Source: Holophagales bacterium UBA5704 (GTDB lineage: Bacteria > Acidobacteriota > Thermoanaerobaculia > Multivoradales > UBA5704). From it: 64,000 bases of DNA. The notes below the pieces were generated by a model. That model was not told the origin of the DNA, searched no databases, and saw nothing but the letters and a program-made list of their open reading frames with translations. Of this stretch, positions 8,690-26,063 are shown one piece after another. Position 1 is the first letter of the stretch; every line of letters begins with the position of its first letter. The stretch lies in NCBI GenBank assembly GCA_002420005.1, contig DIHE01000147.1, positions 36,006-100,005 on the forward strand, in the 5' to 3' direction. The position numbers and the translations under genes are program-made.

Positions 8690-10639
8690 TCACTCTCCCC
8701 GGAACCGGTAGATCCCTCCCTGCGAAGCGGCGAACAGAAGGTCCGGATCGCTTGGCGAGACGTTCAGGCCCATGAGCAGCGAAAAGGAGGTCGGCAGGCC
8801 GTCCTGGGACAGAGGAGCCCAGGAGGCTCCGGCGTCGGTGCTGCGATAGATCAGCCGCCCGAAGCCGGTGCCGTCGGAAAAGGCGTACAGGACGGAAGGG
8901 GCCGACGGCGCGGGCACGACGTTGAAGTCAGGACCGGCGGGCAACCCGGCCAGAGGGCTCCAGGTGACGCCGCCGTCCATGCTCCGGGAGGGGACGCTGC
9001 TCAGGCGGGCGTAGAGGACGTCCGGATCCTCGGAGGACACCGACAGCCCGGAGGCGAACGTCTGCCCCAGGTCCTTGACCACGTCCCAGGAAATCCCTCC
9101 GTCGACCGTCTTGAAGATCTGCTGGAAGGGGTAGCCGCCGAGGGCGTAGAGGGTTGACGGCTGCGAGGGCGCGATCCGGAGCGTACCCAGGTTCTGGGGA
9201 AGCCCCTGCATGCACGACCAGGTCGCCCCGTGGTCGGTGCTCTTGAGATGGTCGCAGACCGGGAGCGGCGCACACCCGATGACGAAGTCTCCGAGCGCGT
9301 AGAGATTCGCGGGCTCCTGCGGATCGATCACGACGTCCCTGATCCTCAGGCAGTCGAGGGTGGCCAGCTTCCGCCAGGTGGTGGCGGCGTCGCGGGTCTT
9401 CCAGAGGCCCCCGGCACCGGCGCCGAGAGCCACGCGGGGGAACTGCGGGTGCACCGCCAGCAGCTGGGCGGCGTGTCCGTCCCGCATCCAGGTGGCCCCG
9501 CCATCCAGGGAGTGCATCCCGACGCCGGTGGCATAGAGGACGTCCTGGGTGGCGGGGGCGAGGGTCAGGCTCTCGACACGGAGGGGAGGCAGGCCGCGGT
9601 TGGTTTCCTCCCAGGTGACGCCCCGATTCGTGCTCTTCAGGAGCCCCTGGCTGTCGGCGGCATGGATCACCGCGCCGCCGGCCGGGACGACGAGGAGCCG
9701 CGGAAAGCGCAGCGGCGTCGCCGCCGCCTGCCAGCGTCTCCCCTGGTTGGAACTGATGAACAGACCGTCCTCGGTGGCGGCATAGACGCGGGACGGCGAG
9801 ACGCCCGCCGCCAGGCCGAAGATCGTGCGGCCGCCGAGGCCTTTCGCCGCCGGCGACCAGGTCAGCCCACCGTCGAGGCTGCGGTACAGCGGCGCATCGT
9901 GGAGGCTGAGGATCTGCAGGAACAGGGCCGCCGGCGGGCCGGGCGCCATCGTCAAGCCGGTGAGCGGCGGCAGTGGCTCGGGTAGCCCGGAGTTGCGCGC
10001 GCTCCAGGTCGCGCCATCGTTCGTGCTCCGCAGGAAGCCCGCTTCGTCGTCGACGGCGTAGAGGGTTCCCGGCTTCCCGGGATGGAACCTGACCTCCGTC
10101 ACGTTGCTCCACCGCACAGTGCCCGCCTGGGCGCGCCAGGACGTTCCGCCGTCCGTGCTCTGGTAGATGCCGAGAACCGTGCCGGCGACGAGCCTCGCGG
10201 GGTTCCGCGGATCGATCGCGACGTCGTTCACCTGGCACGTGTCGAGACCGGTGAGGAGCTCCCAGGTCCGGCCGGCGTCGACCGTCCGGAACAGCCCGCC
10301 CACGGCCGGCTTGTCGTGGTACTCGGGATCGCAGACGACGGCGTAGGCCTTGGCGGGATTGCGCGGATCGACCTCCAGGTCGTCGACGGGCCGGCCGGCG
10401 GGAAAGTCGCCCGTCACCTCGCGCCAACCGGCTCCCGCGTCGACGCTCCGGAAGACCTTGCCGTCCCGGGTGCCGGCATAGAGGACCCGCGCGTTGCCCG
10501 GCGCCACCGTGAGCGCGCTCATCTCGGCGCCGAACGGTCCCAGGAGCTCCCAGCGGCCCTCCTGGGAGTGAGCCGGAGCCACGGCGGCCCCCAGAAGAAA
10601 GACCGCGGCGGCTGTACAAAGGATCGGTCGAGCGAACAT
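8690..10639 (-). CDS. Secreted BNR/Asp-box repeat beta-propeller protein (sortilin/Ycf48-like)
   Basis: Signal peptide MFARPILCTAAAVFLLGAAVAPAHS; multiple S-x-D-x-G-x-T-W BNR motifs (STDGGTSW, STNDGATW, SLDGGLTW, SMDGGVTW...); AAGGAG RBS. Confidence 0.8.
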   Translation of the reverse strand: MFARPILCTAAAVFLLGAAVAPAHSQEGRWELLGPFGAEMSALTVAPGNARVLYAGTRDGKVFRSVDAGAGWREVTGDFPAGRPVDDLEVDPRNPAKAYAVVCDPEYHDKPAVGGLFRTVDAGRTWELLTGLDTCQVNDVAIDPRNPARLVAGTVLGIYQSTDGGTSWRAQAGTVRWSNVTEVRFHPGKPGTLYAVDDEAGFLRSTNDGATWSARNSGLPEPLPPLTGLTMAPGPPAALFLQILSLHDAPLYRSLDGGLTWSPAAKGLGGRTIFGLAAGVSPSRVYAATEDGLFISSNQGRRWQAAATPLRFPRLLVVPAGGAVIHAADSQGLLKSTNRGVTWEETNRGLPPLRVESLTLAPATQDVLYATGVGMHSLDGGATWMRDGHAAQLLAVHPQFPRVALGAGAGGLWKTRDAATTWRKLATLDCLRIRDVVIDPQEPANLYALGDFVIGCAPLPVCDHLKSTDHGATWSCMQGLPQNLGTLRIAPSQPSTLYALGGYPFQQIFKTVDGGISWDVVKDLGQTFASGLSVSSEDPDVLYARLSSVPSRSMDGGVTWSPLAGLPAGPDFNVVPAPSAPSVLYAFSDGTGFGRLIYRSTDAGASWAPLSQDGLPTSFSLLMGLNVSPSDPDLLFAASQGGIYRFRGE

Positions 10640-10776: not shown

Positions 10777-12012
10777 TCAAGACACGGCCGCGGCGAGCGC
10801 CGGCTCTTCCAGCTCCGCCTCCTCCTCTTCGGCCACCGGCAGGGCGTCCGGAAAGCCCTTCCACCCGTCCGGCCCGAGGCGCATCTCGTCGTCGGTCAAC
10901 AGGCACTCCTCCAGCCGGCGGGTCAGCGCCTCCCGGTCCATGCCGATGCCGATCAGCACCAACTCCTGGCGCCGGTCGCCAAAGTCGGGGTGCCAGGTCT
11001 CCGCCAGCTCGCGGCGGAAATCCTCGTCCTCCGGCCAGTCCTCGGAGGGCATCGCGGCCCACCAGACGCCGCCGGGCGCCAGGGTCGAGCACCGGCCGGC
11101 GTGGGACCAGACGAAGATCTCGTCCATCCGCGAGGCCACCCACAGAAAACCCTTGGAGCGCACGACGCCGGGCCACTCCTCCAGGGCATACCGGCGGAAG
11201 CGCTCCGGATGGAACGGCCGCGCCGAGCGGAAGACGAAGCTCGCGATCCCGTACTCCTCGGTCTCGGGCACGTGCTCGCCGGCCAGCTCGCGCATCCAGC
11301 CCGCCGACGCGGAGGCCTTCTCCATGTCGAACAGACCGGTGTCGAAAATCGCCTCCAGCGGCACGCGCCCGTGCTCGCTGCGCACGATCCGCGCCGTCGG
11401 ATTGAGATGGCGCAGCAGACCCTCGATGCGGCCCAGCTCCTCCTCGGTCGCGAGATCCGCCTTGTTGAGCACCAGGACGTTGCTGAATTCGATCTGATCC
11501 ACCAGCAGATCGGCGATGGTCCGCTCATCCTCGGCGCCGGCGGTCAGTCCGCGCGCCAGGAGATCCTCGCCGCGCTCGATCTCGGCCAGGACGTTGGCCG
11601 CGTCCACCACCGTCACCAGGGTGTCCAGGCGGGCGAGGTCGCCCAGGCTCACGCCGTCGCCGTCGGTGAAGCTGAAGGTCATGGCCACCGGCAGAGGCTC
11701 GGAAATGCCGGTGGACTCGATGAGCAGGTAGTCGAAGCGCCCCTCGCGGGCCAGGCGGGACACCTCCAGCAACAGGTCTTCCCGCAAGGTGCAGCAGATG
11801 CAGCCGTTGGTCATCTCCACCAGCCGCTCCTCGGTGCGATCGAGACGGGCGTCGCCGTCGCGCACCAGCCGGGCGTCGATGTTGACCTCGCTCATGTCGT
11901 TGACGATCACCGCGACACGGCGCCCGCTGCGCTGGGCCAGGACATGGTTGAGAAGCGTCGTCTTCCCCGCGCCGAGGAAGCCGGAGAGGACGGTGACAGG
12001 GAGCTGGCTCAT
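10777..12012 (-). CDS. COG0523 G3E-family GTPase metallochaperone (CobW/ZigA/YjiA-like), putative zinc chaperone
   Basis: Walker [14 protein letters not shown] metal motif [10 protein letters not shown], His/acidic C-terminal region; AGGAGG RBS 9 nt upstream of ATG 12012; upstream part of track ORF is in-frame read-through. Confidence 0.85.
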
Positions 12013-12070
12013 GAGTGCGGTACCTCCTTCAAGTGAGAGGCCATTCTCAACAAGCCGACCCTGCCGGGTT

Positions 12071-12271
12071 GTGCGAAATCGCACCGCCCGAGGTCCCGCG
12101 GCGAGAGATGCTGGAGCCGCCAACGCCGCGCCCTCCGCGATAGGGCGCGGTGCCCATGATGCGTCCGCCGGGGCCAGAATCCCTCCGGCGGCGCCTTTTT
12201 TCCTTCAGCGCCCTGCACCCTCCCTCCTCCCTCGGAATTCTTTCTGTGCCTGTGCCGAATCGCACCGGTGC
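12071..12271. promoter_or_regulatory. Divergent promoter region with two copies of an imperfect-palindrome motif GTGC(C)GAA(A)TCGCAC and an 8-bp hairpin
   Basis: GTGCGAAATCGCAC 12071-12084; GTGCCGAATCGCACCGGTGC 12252-12271 (contains perfect palindrome GCACCGGTGC); CGCGCCCT-N7-AGGGCGCG 12127-12149; lies between divergent COG0523 gene and RiPP precursor. Confidence 0.3.
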
Positions 12272-12409
12272 AGGGGTGAAAAGCGGACAAACCGAACCGG
12301 CCGGGGCTCTCTATCCTCCCGCTCATTCGGCAGGCCTGCCGGAGACCCCGGTGCGGCGACGTGCCGCCGTGCCGATGCCGATCAACCCGTTTTCAGGAGG
12401 ATTACGCCC

Positions 12410-12553
12410 ATGGACTTCAAGAACGACATCTTCGAAGCCGTCTCCGCCACCCTCTCCGAGGATCCGGTCCACAGCAACACCCACAACCACGCTCTCGTCC
12501 ACAACCCCTTCGCCTGGGAAGAGGACGAGACCTCCACCCCCGACGCCGAGTAG
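12410..12553 (+). CDS. RiPP precursor peptide candidate (47 aa, Cys-free, His/Asn-rich): MDFKNDIFEAVSATLSEDPVHSNTHNHALVHNPFAWEEDETSTPDAE
   Basis: AGGAGG RBS 7 nt upstream of ATG; strong GC3 codon bias consistent with genuine coding; positioned immediately upstream of E1-like/YcaO/SagB operon; followed by stem-loop attenuator. Confidence 0.6.
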   Translation: MDFKNDIFEAVSATLSEDPVHSNTHNHALVHNPFAWEEDETSTPDAE

Positions 12554-12577
12554 CCCCACCCACGTCCTCGTTCCTCC

Positions 12578-12610
12578 GGGGGAGGCGGCACGTCGCCTCC
12601 CCCTTTCTTG
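12578..12610 (+). terminator. Stem-loop attenuator between precursor and modification genes (perfect 10-bp GC stem + TTTCTTG)
   Basis: GGGGGAGGCG(12578-12587) loop gcacgt CGCCTCCCCC(12594-12603) then TTTCTTG; typical of RiPP precursor-enzyme stoichiometry control. Confidence 0.5.
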
Positions 12611-12635
12611 CGACCTGGAGCTTGCAGGAGGCACC

Positions 12636-13460
12636 TTGAACGAAGCCCTGCGCGATGGTTGGCACCTTTGCCCCTCACCGGAGGGACGCTGGATGCTGGT
12701 CTCCCCCGAAGAGCGGTTCGTGCGGTTGCGCATCGAGCCGGAGCAGGCCGCCCGGCTGGCCCATCGGTTGACCGGCGGGACCACGGGCGGAGAGCCGGAG
12801 GGCGACCTGCTCCCGATCCTGGAGACGTTCGCGCAGCAGGGGCTGCTGGCCGACCGGCCGGCTGCGGTGTCCCCGCTCACCGGCCGCCATGTTCTGGTGC
12901 GCGGCGGCGGACCTGTCGCCGCCACGGTGACCCGCCTGCTGCGCGCGGCCGGCGTGGGACGGGTGACGGAACGCGACGCCGGAGCCCTTCCCGTCTCCAC
13001 GGTCGACGCGCCGCACGCGGTCATCGCCTGCGCCGGCTGGCTTCCCGATGCGGACTGGCTTCGGCTGGACGCCTGGTGCGCCGGGCACGGCATCGTCTGG
13101 ACCGGCTGCCACGCCGAGGGGCTGCGCTTTCATCTCGGCCCGCTGGCGATTCCCGGACGCACCGCGGGCTATGCCGATGTCCGCGCGCGGCGGCTCGCCG
13201 CGGCGCGCCATCCCGCGGAGCTCGAAGCCTGGTGGCGCCATCTGGACGGAGGCCGGGACGTTCCGGCGGTCCCCTGGCCGGAGCCGGCCGCCCTCGCCGC
13301 CCTCGCCGCCGCCCTCGCCGCCGACGTCCTGGCCTGGCTGAGCGGCAGGCCGCTCCCGCACGAAGGGGTGCAGCTCGCGTTCGATCCGGTGCGCTGGGAC
13401 TGGACGCGCCATCCGGTCCTGCCGGTGCCGCGCAACCTGATGCAGGAGCCCGCCGCATGA
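12636..13460 (+). CDS. E1-like (ThiF/MoeB-fold) YcaO partner protein with N-terminal RRE-like region (TOMM 'C'-type protein)
   Basis: Degenerate Rossmann HVLVRGGGPVAATVTRLLRAAGVGRV and ThiF-like HAVIACAGW..CAGHGIVW pattern, no catalytic CxxC; candidate starts TTG 12636 (AGGAGG upstream) or ATG 12693 (GGAGGG upstream); stop overlaps next start (ATGA). Confidence 0.55.
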   Translation: MNEALRDGWHLCPSPEGRWMLVSPEERFVRLRIEPEQAARLAHRLTGGTTGGEPEGDLLPILETFAQQGLLADRPAAVSPLTGRHVLVRGGGPVAATVTRLLRAAGVGRVTERDAGALPVSTVDAPHAVIACAGWLPDADWLRLDAWCAGHGIVWTGCHAEGLRFHLGPLAIPGRTAGYADVRARRLAAARHPAELEAWWRHLDGGRDVPAVPWPEPAALAALAAALAADVLAWLSGRPLPHEGVQLAFDPVRWDWTRHPVLPVPRNLMQEPAA

Positions 13461-14041
13461 ACGCCCAGGGACCGATCCTCGCCCTCTGCGGCAGCCTGCG
13501 CCACCCGTCGCGCACCCGCCAGGCCCTGGAACGCGCGCTCGCCGCAGCGGCGCGCCTGGGGGCCGCCACCGAGCTCCTCGCCGGGGAGCCGTTGCGCCTC
13601 CCCCTCTGCGACGGCCGCCCGGAGGCCGAGATCCCGCCCGCGGTGGCGGAGCTGCGGCACCGGGCGCGGGCCGCCGCGGCCCTGCTCCTCGGCTCGCCGG
13701 AGTACTGCGGCACCTACTCGGCGGTGATCAAGAACGTCGTCGAATGGCTCGGCCCCTCGATCCTGCAGGGCAAGGTGGTGGGCGTGGTCACCGTCGCCGA
13801 GGGGCCGAGCGCGCAGGGGTCCTTGCGCGCGCTGCGCGAGCTGTGCCTGCTCGAAGGTGCCTGGGTGGTGCCGGCCGCCGCGGCCATCCCGCTGGTCGAG
13901 CAGGTGTTCGCACAGCCGTCCGCGCCGCTGGCGGTCTCGGTGCTGCGCCACCTCGACGCCCTCGGCAAAGCCCTGCCGGGCGCCCTCCGCCGCCTGCACG
14001 GCCCTTCCGGCCGGCCTCCCGCGGAGGGTCTGCCGGCATGA
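13457..14041 (+). CDS. NAD(P)H-dependent FMN reductase (flavodoxin-like fold, SsuE/ArsH-like)
   Basis: ILALCGSLRHPSRT...LLLGSPEYCGTYSAVIKNVVEW motif of NADPH-dependent FMN reductase family; ATGA overlaps both neighbours. Confidence 0.7.
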   Translation: MNAQGPILALCGSLRHPSRTRQALERALAAAARLGAATELLAGEPLRLPLCDGRPEAEIPPAVAELRHRARAAAALLLGSPEYCGTYSAVIKNVVEWLGPSILQGKVVGVVTVAEGPSAQGSLRALRELCLLEGAWVVPAAAAIPLVEQVFAQPSAPLAVSVLRHLDALGKALPGALRRLHGPSGRPPAEGLPA

Positions 14042-15627
14042 GGGGGCGCAACGTCCCCTGCGTGCACGCCGGGCTCCGAGTGGAGGCGCCGGACGGGGTG
14101 CGGCTCGCGACGGACGTCTACCGGCCCGGCGCCGGACGGCCGGTGCCGGCGGTCCTGCTGCGCACCTACCTGGGCAAGGCGCGGCACCAGGAGGAGGCGC
14201 TGGCCTGGGTGCGCGAAGGCTTCGCCTGCGTGGTTCAGGACGTGCGGGGCCGCTACGACTCGGACGGCTCCTGGGAACCCTATGTCCACGAGCGGGCGGA
14301 TGGCGCCGCGGCGGCGCGCTGGACCGCCGGGCAGCCCTGGTGCGACGGCCGCGTGGTGGTGGCCGGCGGCTCGTATGGCGCCTTCACCGCCTGGGCGGCG
14401 GCCCTGGAGAGCCCGGTGGTGCGGGCGGCGGCGGTCTCCGTCCCCGCCATGCACCGGGTGAATTTCGCACCCGGCGGGGTGCTCAAGCTGCTCAATCACA
14501 CCGCCTGGTGGATGGCGCACGGAGACGCCCGCACCGAGCGGACCCGTCTGTTCGAGGCGATGTGCAGAGCCTGCCCGGATCTCCTCGCACGCCTGCCGGT
14601 CTGCGCTCTGCCACCGAATGTCTGGGCCGCGCTGCCCGGTTGGCTCCCCGCAGCCCTCGCCGGCCCCGGACGGCCCGCGGTCTCCGACGCGGATCTCGCC
14701 GGGCTCGCCCTGCCGGTGCTCCACATCGGAGGCTGGCACGATCCGTTCATCGCCCAGACGATCCACCAGCAGGCGACCGCCGGATCGGCCGTGGCGCCTC
14801 GGCCCATCCGCCGGATCATCGTCGGCCCCTGGACCCACGAGCTGCACAGCCACGTGCCCGCGGTCTATGGCGCGCGCACCTACGGGCCGGCCTCCCGCCT
14901 GCCGCTGGGGCGCCTGCAGGCCGAGTTCTTCCGCGGAGCCCTCGCGGATTGCACCGCGCCGGCGGCGCAGCTTTTTCTCACCGGTGCGAACCGCTGGCTC
15001 ACAGGGGACGGCTGGCCGCCGGTGCCGGTCGCGCCGTGCACCTGGTTTGCCTCCGCGGGCGGCGCTCTCGCTCCGGAGCCGCCCCGCGCCGGGGGCTCCG
15101 TCTCGTTCTCCTACGATCCCCTCTCCCCCTATCCCGGCCGCAACGGCCCGGTCGACCAGAGCGATCTGCTGCGCCGGCCGGACACCACCGCGTTCACCTC
15201 CCCACCGCTCGCCGCGCCGCTCACCTGGATCGGCGGACCGCGGGTGATCCTCCACGCCGCCACCGACGCCCCCGGCACCGACTGGGTCGCCCGCCTGCAT
15301 GAGGTCTTGCCGGATGGCCGCAGCCTCTACCTCGGCCATGGCCTGGTGGACGCGGCGCAGGAGCTCGCCCGCGACGGCGGAAAGCTCGTGCCGGGCGAGG
15401 CTCACCGGGTGGAGATCGACCTGCCCCCGCTCGCCATCACCCTCCCGGCAGGGCACCGGCTCCGCCTGGAGATCACCAGCAGCGACTTCCCGGCCCATGC
15501 GCGCAACCTGAACACCGGTGCCTGCCGCCTGACCACCTCGGCGACCCGGGTGGCGCGGCAGACGATCCTCCATGGACCCTCGGCTCCCACGGCCCTGGTG
15601 CTGCCGGTGGCACAGGAGCTCCCGTGA
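14038..15627 (+). CDS. CocE/NonD-family alpha/beta hydrolase (S15 X-Pro dipeptidyl-peptidase-like)
   Basis: Nucleophile elbow VVAGGSYGAF, S15-family N-terminal region (DGVRLATDVYRP), C-terminal beta-sandwich; translationally coupled within RiPP operon. Confidence 0.7.
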   Translation: MRGRNVPCVHAGLRVEAPDGVRLATDVYRPGAGRPVPAVLLRTYLGKARHQEEALAWVREGFACVVQDVRGRYDSDGSWEPYVHERADGAAAARWTAGQPWCDGRVVVAGGSYGAFTAWAAALESPVVRAAAVSVPAMHRVNFAPGGVLKLLNHTAWWMAHGDARTERTRLFEAMCRACPDLLARLPVCALPPNVWAALPGWLPAALAGPGRPAVSDADLAGLALPVLHIGGWHDPFIAQTIHQQATAGSAVAPRPIRRIIVGPWTHELHSHVPAVYGARTYGPASRLPLGRLQAEFFRGALADCTAPAAQLFLTGANRWLTGDGWPPVPVAPCTWFASAGGALAPEPPRAGGSVSFSYDPLSPYPGRNGPVDQSDLLRRPDTTAFTSPPLAAPLTWIGGPRVILHAATDAPGTDWVARLHEVLPDGRSLYLGHGLVDAAQELARDGGKLVPGEAHRVEIDLPPLAITLPAGHRLRLEITSSDFPAHARNLNTGACRLTTSATRVARQTILHGPSAPTALVLPVAQELP

Positions 15628-16988
15628 GCGATCCCCTGAAGCTCCTGGTCGATCCGCGCTTCGGCATCGTCACCGCGCTGGAGCGGCGCATGCATCCGCC
15701 GGAGGTGCCGCCGGCCCTGATCTCCTACACGGCACGGGTCGCCGACACCCGGCGGCTGGGTGCCTGGCAAGGGGACCGGGTGGCCCTCGGCTCCGCCTTC
15801 TGGGACGAGGACCGGGCGCGCCGCGCGGCGCTCGGCGAAGCGGTGGAACGCACCTGCGGCAACTTCGTCCCCGCCGGGCTGCTGCGCGCCTCGCACCGCG
15901 ACCTGCGCACGGCCGGCGAGCCGGCCCTCGATCCCGCCGCGATGGTGCTCTATGCGGACTCGCAGTACGACCACCGCGGCTTCCCCTTCGTCCGCTTCAC
16001 CGACGACCTGCGGGTGCTCTGGACGACCGGCCGCGATCTCGCGACCGGAGAGGCGGTGCGGGTGCCCGCGTCGTTCGTCTACATCAACTACTACGGCGGC
16101 GCCCTGGCCGGCGAGCCGAGGACGAACTTCGTCCTCTACTCCGGAATCGCCACCGGGCCGAATCGGGAGGCGGCGGAGGAGGCGGCCCTGGAGGAGCTCA
16201 TCGAGCGCGACGCCACCATGATCTGGTGGATGTCCGGCAGCCCGGCCGTCGGCATTCCTCTGGAAAGCGCACCGATGGTCCGCGCCGCTCTCGCCCATCC
16301 CGCCGACCACGGTACGCTGCACCATCACCTGATCCAGATCCGCACCCCTTTCGACGTGCCGGTGGTCGGCGCCCTGGTGCAGGACACGGAGCTGTCCCTG
16401 ATCGGGCTCGGCGTGGCCTGCCGCCCCGATCCCGGACAGGCCGCTCTCAAGGCGCTGGTCGAGGCGATCCACCTGCGCTGCTTCAGCCGCCAGATGCTCG
16501 ATCCCGGCGGCAGCGTCTGGCGCTCCATGCGCTCCGGAATCCTCGACCCCCGCGCCTACAAACCCTTCCGCGCCGACCGCGCCTACCGGGATGCGTACCG
16601 CGCCGACTTCCGCGACGTGACCGACCTCGGAGCCCAGTCGCAGATCTATCTCGACCCCCGGATGCACGTCCACGCCGACCGCATCCTCCACCCTGCCGCC
16701 TGGGCCCCCCTGGATCGGCTGCCCGCCGTCCCGGGCCGCGCCGCCTACCGGCAACGGCTCGCCGCGCGCGGCTTCCGGGCGATCTCGGTGGACGTCACCA
16801 CGCCGGACGTGCAGGCCGCCGGCTTGTGCGTCGTGCGGGTGATCGTCCCGGGGCTCTACCCGAACGCGCCCGCCGCCTTCCCGTTCCTCGGCGGGCGCCG
16901 GCTGTATGAAGAGCCGGCGGCGCTCGGCTGGCTCCCGGCGCCGCTCACCGAGGCCGACCTGGTCCGCGTCCCCCTGCCGCACACATGA
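15624..16988 (+). CDS. YcaO-domain cyclodehydratase (azoline-forming type, C-terminal Pro-rich motif)
   Basis: YcaO ATP-binding glutamate motifs (LGEAVERTCGN, LEELIERDA), C-terminal VRVPLPHT PxP motif; GTGA/ATGA overlaps. Confidence 0.85.
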   Translation: MSDPLKLLVDPRFGIVTALERRMHPPEVPPALISYTARVADTRRLGAWQGDRVALGSAFWDEDRARRAALGEAVERTCGNFVPAGLLRASHRDLRTAGEPALDPAAMVLYADSQYDHRGFPFVRFTDDLRVLWTTGRDLATGEAVRVPASFVYINYYGGALAGEPRTNFVLYSGIATGPNREAAEEAALEELIERDATMIWWMSGSPAVGIPLESAPMVRAALAHPADHGTLHHHLIQIRTPFDVPVVGALVQDTELSLIGLGVACRPDPGQAALKALVEAIHLRCFSRQMLDPGGSVWRSMRSGILDPRAYKPFRADRAYRDAYRADFRDVTDLGAQSQIYLDPRMHVHADRILHPAAWAPLDRLPAVPGRAAYRQRLAARGFRAISVDVTTPDVQAAGLCVVRVIVPGLYPNAPAAFPFLGGRRLYEEPAALGWLPAPLTEADLVRVPLPHT

Positions 16989-18292
16989 GCGAGCCGCCCG
17001 TCCTCGCCTACCACCGGCGGAGCAAGAACCGTCCGGGCCGCCCCGCCGCGGCACCCCGGAGGCTCGACCGCTCCATCGAGCCGGTCCCCTTCCGGCGCTA
17101 CCGCGGTGCCGCCCTGCTCCCCCTGCCGGAGATCCCGCCGGTGGACGGCCCGGCCTGGGGGGAGCTGTTCATCCCCGGCGCCGTCGCCCCTGCACCGCTC
17201 GACCGGGAGGCCGTGGCCCGCCTGTTCTTCGACTCCCTGGCGATCTCCGCCTGGCGCGAGGAGGCCGGCGCCCGCTTCTCGTTCCGGGTGAACCCCTCCG
17301 CCGGCAACCTCCATCCGACCGAGGCCTATCTCCTCGCCGGCCCCCTGCCCGGGCTGCACGACCGGGCCGCCCTCTACCACTACTCACCGTTCGACCACGC
17401 CCTGGAGATCCGCGCCGATCTGCCGGACGGCGGCGTGCCGCCCGGCACCCTCCTTCTCGGATTCACCTCGATCCTCTGGCGCACCGCCTGGAAATACGGC
17501 GAGCGCGCCTTCCGCCTCGCCCGGCTCGACGCGGGGCATGCCCTCGCCGCGGTCACCTGGGCCGCCGCGGCCCTGGGCTGGGAAGCGCGGCAGGTGGAGA
17601 TCGGCGACGCGGCGCTGGCGCGCCTGCTGGGTGTCGCCGCGCAGGAAGGGCCGGAACGCGAGGAACCGGTGGCCCTGCTCGCCCTCGGAGCCCCGCCCGA
17701 CGCCCGGCCCGGGGCGCCGGGGGACGGCGGCCGTCCGAACCGGATCAGCCCCGGCCACCGGAGCTGGCCGGCGCTCGACGCCGTCACCGCGGCCACCCGC
17801 CACCCGGGTGCGGAGCGGCAGGCCGCACCGGGTGCGGAGACGGCGCGCGCCGTCCTGCGCGGCCGGCGAAGCCCGGCGGCGTTCGCGGGCGCCTTGGGAG
17901 CGGAGGAAATTTCCCGGGTTTTTGCCGGTGGACTTTCTCGCCCGTTCGTGCAGCGGCCCCTGCTGCGGGTCGAACGTCTGCTCCCGGGCGACGGCGTGGA
18001 CCTTCGCCGCCTGGCCGGCCACCAGAGCTTCGCGGCCGGCGCCTCCTGCCTCGCGGTGCTGCTGGGTGACCTGGAGCCGGCGCTCGCCCCCGGCGGCGCC
18101 TGGCTCTACCGCCGGCTGCATGAGGAGGCCGGAGCGATCGGGCACGCGCTCTCCCTGGAGGCGGCGGCGCAGGGCCTGGGAGCGCGGGGCATCGGCGGAT
18201 TTCTCGACGACGAGGTTCTGGCCGCTCTCGGGTTGCCGGCGGAGGGCCGGTGGCAGGCCCTGTATCTGTTGGCGGTGGGGCGGCCGGCGTGA
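16985..18292 (+). CDS. SagB-type (McbC-like) FMN-dependent dehydrogenase, nitroreductase superfamily
   Basis: FSFRVNPSAGNLHPTEAYL signature of SagB/ThcOx dehydrogenases; two nitroreductase-like halves. Confidence 0.8.
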   Translation: MSEPPVLAYHRRSKNRPGRPAAAPRRLDRSIEPVPFRRYRGAALLPLPEIPPVDGPAWGELFIPGAVAPAPLDREAVARLFFDSLAISAWREEAGARFSFRVNPSAGNLHPTEAYLLAGPLPGLHDRAALYHYSPFDHALEIRADLPDGGVPPGTLLLGFTSILWRTAWKYGERAFRLARLDAGHALAAVTWAAAALGWEARQVEIGDAALARLLGVAAQEGPEREEPVALLALGAPPDARPGAPGDGGRPNRISPGHRSWPALDAVTAATRHPGAERQAAPGAETARAVLRGRRSPAAFAGALGAEEISRVFAGGLSRPFVQRPLLRVERLLPGDGVDLRRLAGHQSFAAGASCLAVLLGDLEPALAPGGAWLYRRLHEEAGAIGHALSLEAAAQGLGARGIGGFLDDEVLAALGLPAEGRWQALYLLAVGRPA

Positions 18293-19602
18293 AGGCCTTC
18301 GGTCGCCTCGTCGATCCCCGGCTGGGCCTCCTGCGCCGCCTCGCCCTGGAGCCGCTGCCGCCGCACCTCCCCCCCGGCCTCTGCCAGGCCCGCGCCGAGA
18401 TCGCCGACAGCCGCGCCTTCTCCCCCTGGACGAGCGACGCCGCCGCGGCCGGGCTCGCCTGGTGGAACGCGGAGGCGGCCCGCGCCGCGGCGGTTGGTGA
18501 GGCGGTCGAGCGCTATTGCGGCAACGTCGTGCCCACCGGGCTGCGGCGCGCTTCCTACGCCGAGCTCGCCGCCGGTGGTGGGGCGGCCCTCGATCCGGCG
18601 GATCTCGCCCTCTATGCCCCGGAGCAGTATCGCCGGCGCGGTTTCCCCTTTGTGCCGTTCACCCGCGACCTGCAGGTGCTGTGGACCACGGGCTTCGATC
18701 TGGCCACCGGGGACTCCGTGGCCGTCCCGGCCTCCTGGGTGTGGACCTCGTGGAGCACCGGGCCGGCGGCCGGCGAGCCGAAGACCCACGGCACGATCTA
18801 CGCAGGCATCGCGGCCGGCCCGTCCCGGGAGGAGGCCGAGCGCAGCGCTCTCGCGGAGCTCGTGGAACGCGATGCGGTCCACCTCGCCTGGACGGCCGGC
18901 GTCCCCCTCCCCCGGCTCACGCCACCGGCCTGGATGGAGCCCTTGCTCACCGCTGCGCGCGGGGCGGTCACCGCCGAGCTGTACCTCTTCCCCAACGCCT
19001 TCGGCCTGCCGGTCGTCGGCGCCCTCCTGCGCGACCGGGAGGCCGGCGTGGTGACCCTGGGCCAGGCCTGCCGCACCACACCCGTCGACGCGGCCCTCAA
19101 AGCGGTGGCCGAGGCCGCCCAGCTCAACCTGGTCGCCCGCGCCCTGGCCGACCCGCAAACCGGCCTCGCCGACCGCCTCGCCGCCGTCCCCGGCGCCGCG
19201 CTCCATCCCTGGCGGGCCGACCGCGGCTACGCCGCGCTCTACGGTCCCCTCTGGCGCGGCGCCCGCGATCTCCTGTGCCATCTCCAGCTCCATCTCGATC
19301 CGGCTCTGCACAAGCCCCTCGCCGATCGGCTCGCCACCGGAGGCACCCGGCCCCTGGCCGACCTCCCCGCCGCCGGCCCCGAAACCCGGGAGACCTACCT
19401 GACGCGCCTGCACGCCCGCGGCTTCCGCGCCGTCTCGGTCGACGTCACCACCTCCGACGTCGCCCCGACGGGCCTGCGCGTCGTCCGGGTCGTGGTCCCC
19501 GGGCTCTACGCCAATGCCCCCGCCGCCTTCCCCTATCTGGGAGGACGGCGGCTGGCGGAGGCGGGCGGGGTGCGCTGCACCCTGCCGCCTCCCTATGCGT
19601 GA
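18289..19602 (+). CDS. Second YcaO-domain protein, paralogue of 15624-16988
   Basis: GEAVERYCGN / LAELVERDA motifs; C-terminal block VSVDVTTSDVAPTGLRVVRVVVPGLYANAPAAFPYLGGRRL nearly identical to first YcaO; GTG 18289 overlaps SagB stop; ends LPPPYA. Confidence 0.85.
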   Translation: MKAFGRLVDPRLGLLRRLALEPLPPHLPPGLCQARAEIADSRAFSPWTSDAAAAGLAWWNAEAARAAAVGEAVERYCGNVVPTGLRRASYAELAAGGGAALDPADLALYAPEQYRRRGFPFVPFTRDLQVLWTTGFDLATGDSVAVPASWVWTSWSTGPAAGEPKTHGTIYAGIAAGPSREEAERSALAELVERDAVHLAWTAGVPLPRLTPPAWMEPLLTAARGAVTAELYLFPNAFGLPVVGALLRDREAGVVTLGQACRTTPVDAALKAVAEAAQLNLVARALADPQTGLADRLAAVPGAALHPWRADRGYAALYGPLWRGARDLLCHLQLHLDPALHKPLADRLATGGTRPLADLPAAGPETRETYLTRLHARGFRAVSVDVTTSDVAPTGLRVVRVVVPGLYANAPAAFPYLGGRRLAEAGGVRCTLPPPYA

Positions 19603-19676
19603 GGTGGACCACGCTAGAGCAGGAGCGCCGCGGGGTCGCTTGCGTGCCGTAGGTGCGTGAGTGCGATGACTCAGCT

Positions 19677-19706
19677 GCGGGAGCTTACTGTATAATAGGG
19701 GAGAAT
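19677..19706 (+). promoter_or_regulatory. Putative sigma70-type promoter (TGACTC-N18-TATAAT) for island genes
   Basis: Perfect TATAAT at 19701-19706 in locally AT-rich DNA, 150 nt upstream of lipoprotein ATG. Confidence 0.35.
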
Positions 19707-19857
19707 GAAATCGCTCCTGAAGGGCACCCTACCAACTCCCAAGCTCTCGGAGGGGCGTTCTGATACAGGAGTGTAGCCAGAGCCTTCTTCTCGCCGCAAA
19801 TAGAACTCGGCGAAGCCTGGGCAATGCTGGGCGTCGCCACCATGAGGGAGAAACGCT

Positions 19858-20277
19858 ATGCGTAAATCGTTGGCACTGATCCCCATCCTGGCCATCCTGG
19901 AAGCACTCAGCTCGTGCGCAAGTGCAAACTTCACGCCTGCTCAACAGGCTTGGATGGCCAAGAGAGACCAGCAGCCGCTGAGCTTCGTCGTCCCCGCCGC
20001 CGAGGCCAATGCCGCTTGGGCGCGAGCACAAGAGTGGATTGCACGGTTCGGCCAACTGCCGATTCTCACTACCAACGAGAGTGTAATCCAAACACAGCAA
20101 CCCGAGTATCCCGCTGCTGAGGTAGGAATGAAAGCCGTTCGGAGTCAGCTTCCGAACGGGGACTATCAGTTTTATGTCGACGCACTGAGTGCCAACGTCT
20201 TCTCGCGACCTCAGATGATGCGAATGGCTCAAGCCTGTGCCTATTACATTGCGAGCGGAATTCCCTATCCCGAATGA
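19858..20277 (+). CDS. Small lipoprotein of unknown function (lipobox ALSSC)
   Basis: Signal peptide MRKSLALIPILAILEALSSC; GAGGGAG RBS; lower-GC codon usage than flanks. Confidence 0.55.
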   Translation: MRKSLALIPILAILEALSSCASANFTPAQQAWMAKRDQQPLSFVVPAAEANAAWARAQEWIARFGQLPILTTNESVIQTQQPEYPAAEVGMKAVRSQLPNGDYQFYVDALSANVFSRPQMMRMAQACAYYIASGIPYPE

Positions 20278-20389
20278 CCCCGCTGAGCCTGGCAAGGGCG
20301 GTGCCCCCCATTCATCACAGGCGCGAGGTTCGCCCCTCCGGGAAGACTTCTCGCGGAGAACGGTCGCTCACACTCAAGGGGTTCTTGGA

Positions 20390-21205
20390 ATGAAGACGCA
20401 CCTTGGAATTCTACTCGGCCTTGCGTACATTGCTGGATTTCTTTCTGTTCAGGTTCACCTGCTCCGCTTTGGTATCCTGGAGATTTCTGCCCTTCAGGCC
20501 TACTACATTCTCGTGGGTTTCTGGTTCCTTCTGTGCATAGCGCCCGCACTGGCGACCATCCTCGCCTTGGAGTACGCGCTTTCGCCTTCGGACTCGCGGC
20601 GAGTCAGGGTCCTTGTCGTGCTCACCGGAGGTACAATTGCCGCAGCCGCAATCGCGGGAGGAAGCCGATTCGCTGCTCATCAGATGATTCTTAACTTCAA
20701 CGCCTATCCATACCCTTCTTGGTATGCAGTTGCAAACCTCGCAAATATGAATTTTTCCCTGGTTTTAGTCTGGGTTCTATCATTCGCCTACTCCAGGTTT
20801 ACGGGCTCCAAGAGAACAGCACGAAAGATTGGAGCCGCAGCCGGGGCGATCGCCTTATCTAGTGCAATTATATTCTTTGGTCGCACCATCTATCCTGCAT
20901 TGGATCATGGCGTGGGTGGAGGGGCGCCGCAGTTCGTCGAAATCATGGAAGACAACGGCCACCGCCGCATCGCGATGCAGATCCACGCTGGCGAAAATTA
21001 TCTCTACCTTCTAGAGCTTACGGCACTACCGGCGAAATTCGAGAGTCGCTTAGCCATAACGCAGTTCACAACAGATTCAGGTGGCCCCGTCTTCCGCGCC
21101 CTCGCCGACAACCAGATTCTTAAACTGAGAAACAGTCGCATAGATATTGTTAGAATCTTCGGACTCAGTCAGAGAGGAACCATTGGTAGCTACCTCGGCA
21201 AGTGA
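20390..21205 (+). CDS. Polytopic inner-membrane protein of unknown function
   Basis: Start MKTHLGILLGLAYIAGFLSV; at least 6 hydrophobic segments; located in lower-GC island. Confidence 0.5.
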   Translation: MKTHLGILLGLAYIAGFLSVQVHLLRFGILEISALQAYYILVGFWFLLCIAPALATILALEYALSPSDSRRVRVLVVLTGGTIAAAAIAGGSRFAAHQMILNFNAYPYPSWYAVANLANMNFSLVLVWVLSFAYSRFTGSKRTARKIGAAAGAIALSSAIIFFGRTIYPALDHGVGGGAPQFVEIMEDNGHRRIAMQIHAGENYLYLLELTALPAKFESRLAITQFTTDSGGPVFRALADNQILKLRNSRIDIVRIFGLSQRGTIGSYLGK

Positions 21206-21550
21206 AACACTTACCCTACCTCAGGCACGCCACCGAGCGGAGAGCCCCGCGTTGTTCTCCAGCTGGCGCCGTGAATAGGAATGGTCCGAGGGATCGGTAG
21301 ATCGGCCCAAGCGAGAGAAGATCGGCGAGACCGCCTGGCGGGTGGATAATCCGGACCTTGGACCGTAGGGTCCTGCCTTGCGTTCCAGCGACTCCCGCCC
21401 ACATGTGCCTGCCGGACCTTGATCTGAGTGAGGCTCGCCACCCAAGGACCGGGAGCCTCCGCCCGCGGGCGGGGTACCCCCGCATCTCGGGTATTGGCGC
21501 TATACTTCCGTGCGTCCAGCCCTTCTTGCGGGCTGGCAGAGGAGTTTTGA

Positions 21551-21790
21551 ATGTACGCTGTCTACACGCTCCGTGCCGAAGAGCTCGACCTGCGCTTTCT
21601 CGAGACACTCAAGAGTCAGTTCCGTGATCGTGAAATCGAGATCGCGATCTGTGAGGTCGCAGGGCGGGCCGAGGATGAGACCGCCTACCTCCTCCGCTCC
21701 CCCGCCAATCGGGAGCGCCTCCTGGACGCCATCGAGAACGTGAGCCAAGGCAGGGAGATCGTGACCCTCGACCCCGCCGAGCTTCGATGA
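21551..21790 (+). CDS. yefM: YefM/Phd-family antitoxin
   Basis: C-terminal [25 protein letters not shown] closely matches E. coli YefM [31 protein letters not shown] RBS. Confidence 0.85.
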   Translation: [79 protein letters not shown]

Positions 21791-22044
21791 AGAAGATCGC
21801 TTTCGAGCGGCGCGCCTTCGAGGACTTCACCGACTGGGCAACTACCGATCGGCAGACCCACAAACGCATCGTCGCCCTCATCGCCGACATTCTGCGAGAG
21901 CCTTTTTCGGGCCTGGGAAAGCCTGAGCCCTTGCGCCATGAGATGCAGGGGTACTGGTCCCGCCGGATCGACCAGGAGCATCGACTGGTCTACAGAGTGG
22001 ATCCGGACGCGGTGACCATCATCGCCTGCAAGTACCACTACTGA
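21787..22044 (+). CDS. yoeB: YoeB/Txe-family mRNA interferase toxin (RelE superfamily)
   Basis: PFSGLGKPEPLRHEMQGYWSRRIDQEHRLVYRVD...IIACKYHY matches YoeB catalytic C-terminus (RYHY); ATGA overlap with yefM. Confidence 0.88.
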   Translation: MKKIAFERRAFEDFTDWATTDRQTHKRIVALIADILREPFSGLGKPEPLRHEMQGYWSRRIDQEHRLVYRVDPDAVTIIACKYHY

Positions 22045-22080
22045 CTCCTCGAACGGCGGACGGCGCCCGGGGCCGGTGCC

Positions 22081-22827
22081 TCAGTGCCGGACGCAGAACC
22101 GCTCCCCGCCCGGGGTGCGCACCACGCTGAGCACGCCCCGGCGGCGGAGCTGGCTGAGCAGGCGGGTGACGGTGGCCCGGGTGCCTCCGACCGCCGAGGC
22201 GATCTGCGCGTGGGTCAGCCGGACGTCGAGCAGCAGGCCGCGGGGATGCGGCCGGCCGAAGGGCTCGGCGAGCAGATGGAGGATGCCCAGCACCCGCTGC
22301 TCCATGTGCGGCCGGGCCTGCATGGAGGCCCAGGCCTCCATCTGCCGCAGCCGGTACCGCAGCCGCTCGGCCAGCTCGGGCTGACGGATCGCCTCGACCC
22401 AGGTGTGGGTGCGGACCTCGACCTCGGTGTGGGCGGTCAGCTCGAGGGCGCAGCCATGGGCCGGATGCCCCGGCAGAAGCCGGCCGGGGCCGAACAGGCC
22501 CAGCAGGACCTCCGCGCCGTCCGCATGCAGCGCGGTAAGCGCCACCACCCCCTCCTTCACTTCGAGAACCGCGTCGTCCGGCAACGAGATGAGCTGCCCC
22601 TGGCGATAGCGGTGCCGGCGGTGGGCCGCCGGGGCCGGAGCGGGGGGCGGCGGGGCCGGCGCCACGGCCGGGCCGGCGGCCATCGACGACAGCACGCTGC
22701 GCACCGTGCGTTCCATCTGATCCGGCGGCAGGTCGTCCGACACGAGGGTGATGCAGCACTCGCCGCCGAGCAGGCCGGCGAGATCGGTGGCGCGTTCTTT
22801 CGGGCCGAGAAACACCAGATGATGCAT
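22081..22827 (-). CDS. Crp/Fnr-family transcriptional regulator with ~60-aa N-terminal extension
   Basis: cNMP-binding beta-roll region followed by HTH THAQIASAVGGTRATVTRLLSQLRRRGVL; GAGGAG RBS. Confidence 0.75.
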   Translation of the reverse strand: MHHLVFLGPKERATDLAGLLGGECCITLVSDDLPPDQMERTVRSVLSSMAAGPAVAPAPPPPAPAPAAHRRHRYRQGQLISLPDDAVLEVKEGVVALTALHADGAEVLLGLFGPGRLLPGHPAHGCALELTAHTEVEVRTHTWVEAIRQPELAERLRYRLRQMEAWASMQARPHMEQRVLGILHLLAEPFGRPHPRGLLLDVRLTHAQIASAVGGTRATVTRLLSQLRRRGVLSVVRTPGGERFCVRH

Positions 22828-25278: not shown

Positions 25279-26063
25279 GACACCCTCCCGGGCAGGGCGA
25301 CCATCTCGGCCACCGCGGAGCCGAACGTCCGCTCGAAGACGCCGGACTCGATCAGCTCCCCGGCGCCGCCGGCCACCAGCGGCCCTCCCTTGGGCAGCAG
25401 CCAGAGGCGGTCGGCGTTGCGCAGGGCCAGCTCCAGATCGTGGGTCGACAGGAGGACGGCCTTGCCTTCGTCGTGCGCCAGCCGGCGCAGGATGCGCAGA
25501 ACCTCCACCCGGTGCGGCAGGTCGAGGAACGCCGTCACCTCGTCGAGGAGCAGCACCTCCGGCTCCTGCGCCAGGGCGCGCGCGATCATCACCTTTTGCC
25601 GCTCGCCGTCCGACAGCTCGGCGACGCTGCGGCCGGCCAGGTCCTGCGCTCCCACGGCGGCGAGGGACCGTTGGACGATCGCGTGATCGGCCGCGGCGAG
25701 CCGCCCCGACCAACCGGTGTACGGGTAGCGGCCGAGCTCCACCAGGGCGGTGGCGGTGAGCGCCTCGACGACGATGCGGTCGGTGAGCACCACGGCGAGA
25801 TGGCGGGCCAGCCGCCGCGGCCCCAGCTCCCGCAGATCCTCGCCGGCGACCACCACCCGCCCGGCGAGCGGCGGCTGCATGCCGGCCAGCGTGCGCAGCA
25901 AGGTGGACTTGCCGGCGCCGTTCGGCCCCAGGAAACAGACGAGCTCGCCGCGGCGCAGCACCGTCTCGATACCCTCCAGCACCGGCCGCGGCCGGCGATG
26001 CCGGACATAGCCGACCGCAAGCCCTTCGACGCGGAGCGGGGGCCGGTTTGCGTCGTCTCTCAT
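25275..26063 (-). CDS. ABC transporter ATP-binding protein (FepC/FecE/BtuD-like)
   Basis: Walker A GPNGAGKST, signature LSDGERQKV, Walker B LLLDEVT; ATGA overlaps on both sides. Confidence 0.85.
   Translation of the reverse strand: MRDDANRPPLRVEGLAVGYVRHRRPRPVLEGIETVLRRGELVCFLGPNGAGKSTLLRTLAGMQPPLAGRVVVAGEDLRELGPRRLARHLAVVLTDRIVVEALTATALVELGRYPYTGWSGRLAAADHAIVQRSLAAVGAQDLAGRSVAELSDGERQKVMIARALAQEPEVLLLDEVTAFLDLPHRVEVLRILRRLAHDEGKAVLLSTHDLELALRNADRLWLLPKGGPLVAGGAGELIESGVFERTFGSAVAEMVALPGRVS

Follow-up and report, generated by a model that had tools for sequence, protein, structure and literature searches.

Acinetobacter ZigA and Bacillus ZagA/YciC are Zur-regulated COG0523 zinc metallochaperones, and methanobactin is a ribosomally produced, post-translationally modified peptide (RiPP) metallophore made with MbnBC. 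The present analysis concerns a 64-kb stretch of DNA from Holophagales bacterium UBA5704, a member of the Acidobacteriota (henceforth the window, i.e. the whole 64,000 nucleotides analysed; 70% G+C), in which a ZigA-type gene and a RiPP operon diverge from a spacer carrying two copies of a 14-16 base motif. The RiPP clusters closest to that of the window are those of the streptamidine (ami) family, which is among the most widespread of the YcaO RiPP families and the biological role of which is unknown (PMC8442711). Described ami clusters encode a precursor (AmiA), a hypothetical E1-like protein (AmiB), a hydrolase (AmiC), a YcaO protein (AmiD) and a flavin dehydrogenase (AmiE), together with FecBCDE-like importers and ABC exporters (PMC8442711). 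Russell et al. 2021, who reported the family only from Actinobacteria and Firmicutes, have already proposed a metal-import role for it (PMC8442711).

Judged by its recurrence in related loci, the repeated motif is a real, evolutionarily conserved DNA control site. On balance, and with some reserve, we favour a reading in which the spacer is a divergent control region with two GTG-N8-CAC operators that would be bound by an NtcA-like protein, with the ZigA gene and the RiPP operon under the same regulator and with metal limitation as the trigger. The features on which this reading draws are as follows.

10777-12012, minus strand: gene for a ZigA-type COG0523 zinc metallochaperone GTPase of 411 residues (Pfam, NCBIfam and sequence motifs)
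12043-12048, minus strand: candidate -10 hexamer GAGAAT for the ZigA gene, proposed from sequence reading only
12070-12085, no strand assigned: motif copy 1, the 16-mer TGTGCGAAATCGCACC, centred 65.5 nt upstream of the ZigA start codon
12251-12266, no strand assigned: motif copy 2, the 16-mer TGTGCCGAATCGCACC, centred 151.5 nt upstream of the precursor ATG
12312-12317, plus strand: candidate -10 hexamer TATCCT of the precursor promoter, with conserved spacing
12326-12368, plus strand: conserved 5'-untranslated region (5'-UTR) with two hairpins
12410-12553, plus strand: streptamidine-family RiPP precursor of 47 residues (...HSNTHNHALVHNPFAW...)
22081-22827, minus strand: CRP/FNR-family (NtcA-like) regulator, the candidate motif binder (HTH_Crp_2 and Crp domains)

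An earlier, sequence-only reading of this DNA had paired the two genes divergently across a 397-bp intergenic region with two motif copies; the spacer is exactly 12013-12409, and both copies are present and are the only two in 64 kb. Their 14-mer cores (GTGCGAAATCGCAC at 12071-12084 and GTGCCGAATCGCAC at 12252-12265) agree at 12 of 14 positions, and the 17-nt extension TGTGC..AATCGCACCG brings the agreement to 15 of 17. The shared form TGTGC(G/C)(A/G)AATCGCACC is confined in the window to these two sites, and none of 100 dinucleotide shuffles equalled the observed match count. Its occurrence is more than chance: the precursor-proximal copy recurs at the same position in orthologous loci, and 1.01 Mb of unrelated loci contain four matches to the 16-mer at up to three mismatches, all with exactly three. 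Of the two copies, copy 1 comes closer to the consensus and has no mismatch to the site in the L058 locus. The longer palindrome into which copy 2 was said to extend exists (GCACCGGTGC, 12262-12271), but the extension is absent from all orthologues aligned, and we dismiss it as chance.

The loci used for comparison were metagenome contigs with the closest homologues (53-70% identity) of the partner protein encoded after the precursor, plus more distant loci. In four of them (L058, L059, L060 and L062) the motif centre lies 151.5-154.5 nt upstream of the precursor ATG. The precursor-proximal sites are:

L058: TGTGCGAAATCGCACC
L059: TGTGCCAAATCGCACC
L060: GGTGCGAAATCACACC
L062: TGTGCGAAATCGCACA
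Roseiflexaceae L006: TGTGCTCAATCACACA, with TACAAT at 54.5 bp
Egibacteraceae L009: GGTGTCGGATCGCACA
Acidobacteriota L040: TGTGACATAAGCCACG
L083: TGTGTCGAATCGCACG

Overall, a GTG-N8-CAC element is found 127-157 nt upstream of the precursor ATG in nine of 11 loci, drawn from Acidobacteriota, Chloroflexota and Actinomycetota, the background rate of such elements being 0.11 per 300 bp; the two exceptions are Thermoanaerobaculia loci, with GTCCGATTTCGGAC at -125 in the same 6-2-6 layout. Alignment reveals the motif as an island of identity, followed by ~35 nt that cannot be aligned and then by a -10-like hexamer and the conserved 5'-UTR. In five acidobacterial orthologues the hexamer (TATCCT, TACTCT or TATTCT) always stands 52.5-53.5 bp away from the centre of the motif; with L006 included, the spacing across loci is 52.5-54.5 bp. 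The far side of the spacer differs between loci: L060 has a gene of the AraC family there, and L062 an operon for a TonB receptor, with a Uma2 gene in between. The site therefore belongs to the RiPP promoter and not to the COG0523 gene.

The motif is probably bound by the CRP/NtcA-type regulator encoded nearby, and not by Zur, as its geometry and distribution suggest. The regulator, of 248 residues, has the CRP/FNR-family plan of a beta-barrel sensor domain and a C-terminal Crp-type helix-turn-helix connected by a long dimerisation helix; it has Pfam domains PF13545 and PF00325, and its AlphaFold2 (AF2) model (predicted local distance difference test score, pLDDT, 89) has NtcA as nearest solved homologue (Foldseek E = 5e-18, TM 0.62-0.78), the recognition helices reading TRATVTRLL in the window protein and TRVTVTRLL in NtcA. 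Conserved outer half-sites around an AT-rich centre are characteristic of CRP/NtcA-family sites, and the 16-bp sites described here combine a conserved outer GTGC...GCAC with a variable, AT-rich centre. NtcA (GTA-N8-TAC) and CRP (TGTGA-N6-TCACA) sites are likewise 16-bp palindromes with the same half-site spacing, and the predicted positions of the window sites, near -41.5 and about -65, resemble class II and class I arrangements, respectively. There are also differences: the half-site is GTGC rather than GTA (NtcA) or GTGA (CRP); the N-terminal extension of the regulator is variable; its genomic company is metal transport, whereas that of NtcA and CRP is nitrogen and carbon genes; and its pocket contains an invariant His and Cys, whereas NtcA and CRP bind 2-oxoglutarate and cAMP, respectively. 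The two residues, H121 and C126, are invariant in 16 regulator orthologues, at least 90% conserved in 53 homologues, and correspond in the alignment to the effector-binding loop, the effector being cAMP for CRP and 2-oxoglutarate for NtcA; that they might bind metal is speculation.

The main argument for pairing this protein with this site is their distribution, which is complementary to that of Fur-type palindromes. The regulator orthologue and the RiPP cluster are co-located in the window, in L058 (where the Crp-family gene, to which the window orthologue is 75% identical, stands just after the operon), in L006, L010, L040 and L083, and on the contig from Egibacteraceae to which L009 belongs. 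Among 57 genome loci obtained by scanning one genome per species for partner-protein homologues beside YcaO genes, three only (L006, L010 and L040) have a clear regulator orthologue, with a weak hit in Pseudonocardia L056, and the 24 loci with Fur-type palindromes, considered below, have neither the regulator gene nor the motif.

A separate observation concerns the Thermoanaerobaculia relatives, in which GTGCGAAATCGCAC is swapped for GTCCGATTTCGGAC (L003 5487-5500, and the equivalent position in L001). Since both half-sites are altered symmetrically, the change suggests co-evolution of operator and regulator.

The metal link comes from genomic associations. In the window the regulator gene is the last of a minus-strand transport run, composed as follows.

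22840-30347, minus strand: transport operon ending in the regulator gene, 55-68% identical to the L062 operon
28290-30347, minus strand: TonB receptor
~27100-28263, minus strand: binding protein
~26063-27031, minus strand: FecCD
~25275-26000, minus strand: ABC ATPase
22840-25320, minus strand: MacB/FtsX

In L062 a second perfect motif copy is centred 92.5 nt upstream of the TonB-receptor start of a TonB-receptor/binding-protein/FecCD operon, and in L063 a copy stands 67.5 nt ahead of a MacB/FecCD/ABC operon on the same contig as an 83%-identical ZigA. A metagenome scan with the regulator gave 13 loci, six of which have znuABC within a few kb; GGTGCGATTAAGCACC or TGTGCGATTAAGCACC occurs ~130 nt upstream of znuA in L066, L067, L069 and L070, and related palindromes flank the regulator gene itself, also in places that have no RiPP cluster. 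The regulator gene lies directly downstream of a 70%-identical ZigA in L064/L065, and in L077 a COG0523 gene is 3.5 kb from the regulator orthologue. The gene content of the window, with biosynthesis, export and TonB-dependent re-import, would fit a metallophore system, and the associations may point to metal responsiveness.

Some further features of these transport regions were recorded. In L080 (4148-10794) the neighbours of a 68%-identical ZigA are those of a typical zinc island (DUF3299, MacB/FtsX, an ABC ATPase and a ZIP transporter, along with another COG0523 gene), and there is no CRP-type motif. Ahead of the window transport operon is an open reading frame (ORF) of 111 residues (30557-30891, minus strand) with a signal-peptide-like start, an HAHPCPACLH motif and no Pfam hit. 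A promoter-like sequence, TTGACA-17-TATCAA, is visible by eye at 30928-30900; the consensus sigma-70 scan, which found no promoter in the region ahead of the TonB receptor, misses it. Another candidate motif, CGAAACGTTTCG, which stands ahead of the TonB receptor and ahead of one regulator orthologue, was rejected, its frequency being no higher than background.

When the sequence upstream of the partner gene was searched for palindromes in the 57 genome loci, two elements proved recurrent, both strongly enriched ahead of the cluster. The first, TG[AG]NAANNNTTN[TC]CA (e.g. TGAAAACCGTTTTCA), a 7-1-7 palindrome, is found in eight loci; it occurs 13 times in 1.01 Mb, and eight of these occurrences fall within the 450 bp upstream, which make up 2.4% of the sequence. 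The second, the 21-bp GAAAAC-N7-GTTTTC, is found in 16 loci, all 16 occurrences being within the same 450 bp; we read it as possibly two overlapping imperfect Zur boxes. In all, Zur-box-like palindromes occur in 24 of the 57 loci, among L004-L057, ~20-320 nt upstream of the precursor genes. The first element fits the Streptomyces coelicolor Zur box, tGaNNatSatNNtCa (Choi et al. 2017, PMC5472717; PMC9371925), as well as the actinobacterial consensus TGaNAANNNTTNtCA, with the signature positions G2, C8 and C14 present. In Actinoplanes (L013 6777, L017 6787) a further box lies between a divergent gene for an EntS-like major facilitator superfamily (MFS) exporter and a FecCD/binding-protein operon, which itself immediately precedes the RiPP precursor. 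The box of Streptomyces sp. MBT53 is 20-38 nt ahead of the precursor ATG, and nearby a COG0523 gene follows what appears by eye to be a gene for a Cys-less L32 paralogue, a classic Zur target. Because actinobacterial iron control uses IdeR/DmdR, a Fur-type 7-1-7 box points to zinc over iron.

Sites of two types, which by the present assignments would serve two unrelated types of regulator, are therefore found at equivalent positions before the same peptide-plus-transporter module. The actinobacterial Zur regulon has the same logic as that proposed here, with one metal-linked regulator and sites before uptake genes and a secondary-metabolite cluster. The window motif differs from the Zur box in being GC-rich, with a 7-2-7 layout that is not Fur-like, and no Fur-family gene was seen in the window; the earlier remark that the motif is unlike Zur boxes holds, and no Fur/Zur-type box was found in the window or in the acidobacterial loci. 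We also observed, upstream of the partner gene in actinobacterial loci with a single YcaO gene (L023 9693, L027 9722 and L038 1664), the palindrome TGCGAAT-N3-ATTCGCA, which has the TGCGA half-site of the window motif with the half-sites 3 bp further apart.

The RiPP operon itself is, on gene content and precursor sequence, a member of the streptamidine (ami) family in a phylum from which the family was unreported, because both its gene set and its precursor signature match those of Russell et al. 2021. Its genes beyond the precursor, the order of which is backed by codon-position G+C as well as by Pfam and NCBIfam scans, are as follows.

12578-12603, plus strand: terminator-like hairpin of 11 pairs, then TTTCTT (terminator scan)
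12636-13460, plus strand: AmiB-like E1-like/leader-binding partner protein (no Pfam hit; weak TIGR03882 match)
13463-14041, plus strand: NADPH-dependent FMN reductase (Pfam)
14041-15627, plus strand: CocE/NonD (S15) hydrolase, AmiC-like (Pfam, NCBIfam)
15624-16988, plus strand: YcaO cyclodehydratase 1 (Pfam, NCBIfam)
16985-18292, plus strand: SagB-type flavin dehydrogenase (Pfam, NCBIfam)
18250-19602, plus strand: YcaO cyclodehydratase 2 (Pfam, NCBIfam)

The precursor, read as MDFKNDIFEAVSATLSEDPVHSNTHNHALVHNPFAWEEDETSTPDAE, contains the HxxxHxHxxxH array that had been noted previously (within PVHSNTHNHALVHNPFAW; translation of 12410-12553), and the predicted core is His-rich in every close relative. 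It carries the ALV-x-NPF signature (HNHALVHNPFAW, compared with NALVENPFD and NALVHNPFAW in the Russell et al. 2021 datasets) and matches their Network 1 peptides. In the published peptide tables, ...HLSATHSNALVENPFD represents motif A and ...TNALVHNPFAW motif B (PMC8442711); the window precursor, ...HSNTHNHALVHNPFAW, fits both types, combining motif A (..H-x-S-x-T-H..) with motif B (..ALVHNPFAW). A two-YcaO subset has been described among motif B clusters (PMC8442711), and the window operon likewise has two YcaO genes. The AmiB-like partner, hydrolase, YcaO and flavin dehydrogenase expected of an ami cluster are all present, and a FecBCD-type importer and ABC exporter are provided by the binding protein, FecCD, ABC ATPase and MacB genes at 22840-28263. 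The window operon differs from published ami clusters in its acidobacterial host, in its TonB receptor and MacB pump (Gram-negative additions), in an extra FMN reductase and in a His-richer core; a CRP-type operator or regulator, or a Zur-type box, is not described in Russell et al. 2021 (PMC8442711).

The protein database contains few homologues of the partner protein (22 in all, with 70% identity for the best). The 57 genome loci are mostly from Actinomycetota, with some from Acidobacteriota and Chloroflexota, so that the family is present in Chloroflexota too, and they share the order partner, S15 hydrolase, YcaO, YcaO. The window system resembles that of methanobactin in that genes for a TonB-dependent receptor, for export and for a dedicated regulator accompany a ribosomal peptide cluster; its enzymes are of the YcaO, E1-like and SagB types, in contrast to MbnBC, and the characterised member of the window family, streptamidine, bound no metal. 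A metallophore role for the window peptide is unproven.

In the mechanism that we favour, a dimer of the regulator (22081-22827) would bind both operators, TGTGCGAAATCGCACC and TGTGCCGAATCGCACC. Copy 2, which lies ~65 bp ahead of the point at which the precursor transcript is predicted to begin, would act in a class-I-like manner to switch on, rather than repress, the RiPP operon, and the leaky hairpin that follows the precursor gene would ensure that there is more precursor mRNA than enzyme mRNA. Copy 1, ~41.5 bp upstream of the predicted ZigA transcript start, would act in a class-II-like manner, placing ZigA under the same regulator; the -10 candidate GAGAAT (12048-12043) would set this copy at -41.5. 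The trigger would most likely be metal limitation, probably of zinc, which may be sensed directly or via expression of the transport-regulator operon from its own motif-less promoter. The peptide would be exported by MacB and re-imported via the TonB receptor and FecBCD, such that peptide, exporter, importer and ZigA would form one acquisition module. That the motif is common to both divergent genes is a reasonable basis for proposing co-regulation, and co-regulation and the metal link are both supported, albeit indirectly.

Several observations weigh against this mechanism. The window's own transport/regulator operon has no CRP-type motif upstream, and the proposed circuit is incomplete for that reason. 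A consensus sigma-70 promoter scan found none in the 397-bp spacer, and the -10-like hexamers are weak and were chosen by eye. Streptamidine did not bind Fe, Co, Cu, Mg, Mn, Ni or Zn, and the streptamidine mutant had no phenotype under metal starvation (PMC8442711). The nearest named relatives of the regulator are NtcA, which senses 2-oxoglutarate, and PtrA, which is linked to phosphate stress; one orthologue (L064) adjoins phosphate-scavenging genes, encoding a PstS-like protein and a phosphodiesterase. Most regulator orthologues (L064, L066-L077) are 300-345 residues long with an N-terminal receiver-like alpha/beta domain, of which the window regulator retains only ~50 residues, and such a domain suggests signalling by phosphorylation rather than direct metal sensing.

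These last points, from streptamidine to the receiver-like domain, are what favour a reading in which the regulator and motif are real and the signal is not metal, being instead nitrogen/2-oxoglutarate, phosphate stress, redox or a two-component input, with the peptide a signalling or competition molecule. We consider this possible but unlikely, given the repeated linkage of the regulator to znuABC and to ZigA/COG0523 genes, the motif copies ahead of TonB/FecCD and znuABC operons, the Zur-box-like operators at the same place in actinobacterial relatives and the consistently His-rich core.

The membership of ZigA in the regulon is a separate matter. The protein has cobW (PF02492, 3.9e-54) and CobW_C (PF07683, 7.2e-25) domains, narrowly passes the NCBIfam ZigA equivalog model NF038288 (603.9 bits against a cutoff of 600) and has a 100% identical counterpart of 411 residues annotated in an Acidobacteria metagenome-assembled genome. 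The Walker A and CXCC motifs previously ascribed to it are both read in the translation, as GFLGAGKTT and GCICCT; the description of its C-terminus as His/acidic is half right, because the tail is acidic (EEEEAELEE) but has no His. It shares the G3E GTPase, Walker A, CxCC and CobW_C features of Acinetobacter ZigA and Bacillus ZagA/YciC, from which it differs in having a CRP-type palindrome upstream instead of a Zur-like box, no His-rich tract and no obvious partner enzyme.

With respect to this gene, the metal co-regulation advanced by the sequence-only reading stands in part: the motif is conserved and its context across the family points to metal handling, but pairing with COG0523 is not a family trait, being seen in two of the 57 loci. 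ZigA orthologues in L079 and L080/L081 (66-68% identity) have neither motif nor regulator nearby; the ZigA upstream region of L063 ends at a contig edge and fell outside this check. L062 has what we take to be the older layout, a motif copy on each side, with the TonB-receptor operon facing the RiPP precursor. Because ZigA orthologues are without the motif and COG0523 genes are rarely adjacent, copy 1 may be a relic of that TonB-facing layout, and these findings count against a shared ZigA-RiPP regulon. It may then be that copy 2 alone works, ZigA being a chance neighbour with its own control. The orthologous TonB operon of the window is now elsewhere, at 22840-30347, and a different element, CTCTCGCYGCGG..CYTCGG, is common to the ZigA upstream regions of three lineages (window 12088-12109, minus strand; L064 ~9900-9925; L079 ~9740-9765), as this reading would have it. 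On the other side, one would not expect a decaying relic to match the L058 site without any mismatch, the 65.5 nt from copy 1 to the ZigA start is like the 67.5 nt of the functional-looking L063 MacB-operon site, and L064/L065 show physical linkage of the regulator with a ZigA orthologue. We regard the full version, with ZigA under wholly separate control, as unlikely to much the same degree as a non-metal signal. Whether copy 1 is a recruited operator or a relic is, taken on its own, roughly evenly balanced; function is favoured by its perfect consensus match, by a distance typical of a promoter and by the neighbouring ZigA and regulator genes of L064, and the proposed membership of ZigA in the regulon rests on a single locus, the window. 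In L064 and L079 the element shared upstream of ZigA is followed by a leader ending in a terminator-like CCCCCCCTTTTT, for which no Rfam match was found in either locus.

That the motif is instead the operator of another protein (AraC, ArsR/SmtB, TetR or Fur-family), with the CRP-like gene unrelated, is quite improbable. In its favour, palindromes of 14-16 bp are targets of many helix-turn-helix dimers, L060 has a divergent gene for an AraC/cupin regulator beside the motif, and the CRP-like binder was assigned by co-location and site geometry only. Against it, the AraC gene is found in that one locus, the window and acidobacterial loci have no Fur-type box pattern, and a conserved outer GTG/CAC around 8 bp is of the kind bound by the CRP family. 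The motif and the CRP-like gene also occur together in three phyla, the actinobacterial loci that carry Fur-type palindromes have neither, and related palindromes stand beside regulator orthologues even without a RiPP cluster.

Returning to the precursor transcript, a 14-nt perfect inverted repeat flanks the precursor ORF, with one arm in the 5'-UTR (12355-12368, GGCGACGTGCCGCC) and the other in the terminator hairpin (12584-12597, GGCGGCACGTCGCC); none of 300 shuffles gave an inverted repeat as long. The pairing is retained over 11 nt in L058 and 8 nt in L059 and L060, and in Roseiflexaceae L006 via a compensatory change (GATGTGCC / GGCACATC). The minimum free energy (MFE) fold of 12324-12612 uses this 5'-UTR pairing, which competes with the terminator and may control mRNA stability or read-through.

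Two other hairpins lie in the spacer.

12126-12150, no strand assigned: perfect 9-bp hairpin with arms 12126-12134 (CCGCGCCCT) and 12142-12150 (AGGGCGCGG), present in the MFE fold
12161-12201, plus strand: strong terminator-like hairpin followed by TTTTTT, between the two motif copies (sequence reading, folding)

The second was missed by the terminator scan, its loop being too long, is absent from orthologues and has no upstream gene to terminate. The RNA structure of the spacer is overall not unusual (z = -1.07). A riboswitch or small RNA in the spacer was considered and rejected, as no Rfam hit in 11900-12700 rose above noise with E values up to 10 allowed; across the whole window Rfam gave nothing at gathering scores, and no tRNAs were found. 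A 19-nt direct repeat (D1; 12050-12068 and 12287-12305) was also set aside, as its orientation is inconsistent relative to both genes and it is not conserved. Between the RiPP operon and the regulator gene is an island of low G+C (19603-22080; 58% compared with ~72%). It encodes a YoeB toxin (21787-22044) and what is likely an antitoxin (21551-21790), along with two ORFs without family match; in L058 the equivalent place is taken by a UPF0175 antitoxin-like gene.

Taken individually, the RiPP family, ZigA and CRP-type operators are already known. What appears to be new is the conserved operator and cluster-linked NtcA-like regulator of the streptamidine family outside Actinobacteria, the repeated association of this regulator with znuABC and ZigA, and the Zur-box-like operators of actinobacterial streptamidine-family clusters, all as predicted from genome comparison. 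A literature search found nothing relevant on YcaO with COG0523, RiPP zincophores, CRP-family zinc regulators or YcaO with Zur, and brought up no earlier account of the three points just named. In its most far-reaching form, the proposal would be that an NtcA-like regulator with a His/Cys pocket serves as a zinc-limitation switch in Acidobacteriota, Chloroflexota and some Actinomycetota, in the place of Zur, driving a His-rich zinc-carrier peptide, a TonB/FecBCD importer, a MacB exporter and ZigA; we put this forward as a speculative possibility, somewhat more doubtful than either a non-metal signal or separate control of ZigA.

The overall results give an orphan, widespread RiPP family a concrete, testable regulatory and physiological context, in which the CRP-type operator of Acidobacteria and Chloroflexi and the Zur-like boxes of 24 of the 57 loci both point to zinc limitation as the setting of its expression and function. 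The cultured actinomycetes with boxes, including Streptomyces (e.g. Streptomyces antibioticus DSM 40234), Actinoplanes (e.g. Actinoplanes subglobosus) and Amycolatopsis (e.g. Amycolatopsis anabasis), make the zinc idea directly testable. If it is true, a large orphan RiPP family would be tied to metal homeostasis, and a member of the CRP/FNR family would be doing a job that is usually that of Zur.

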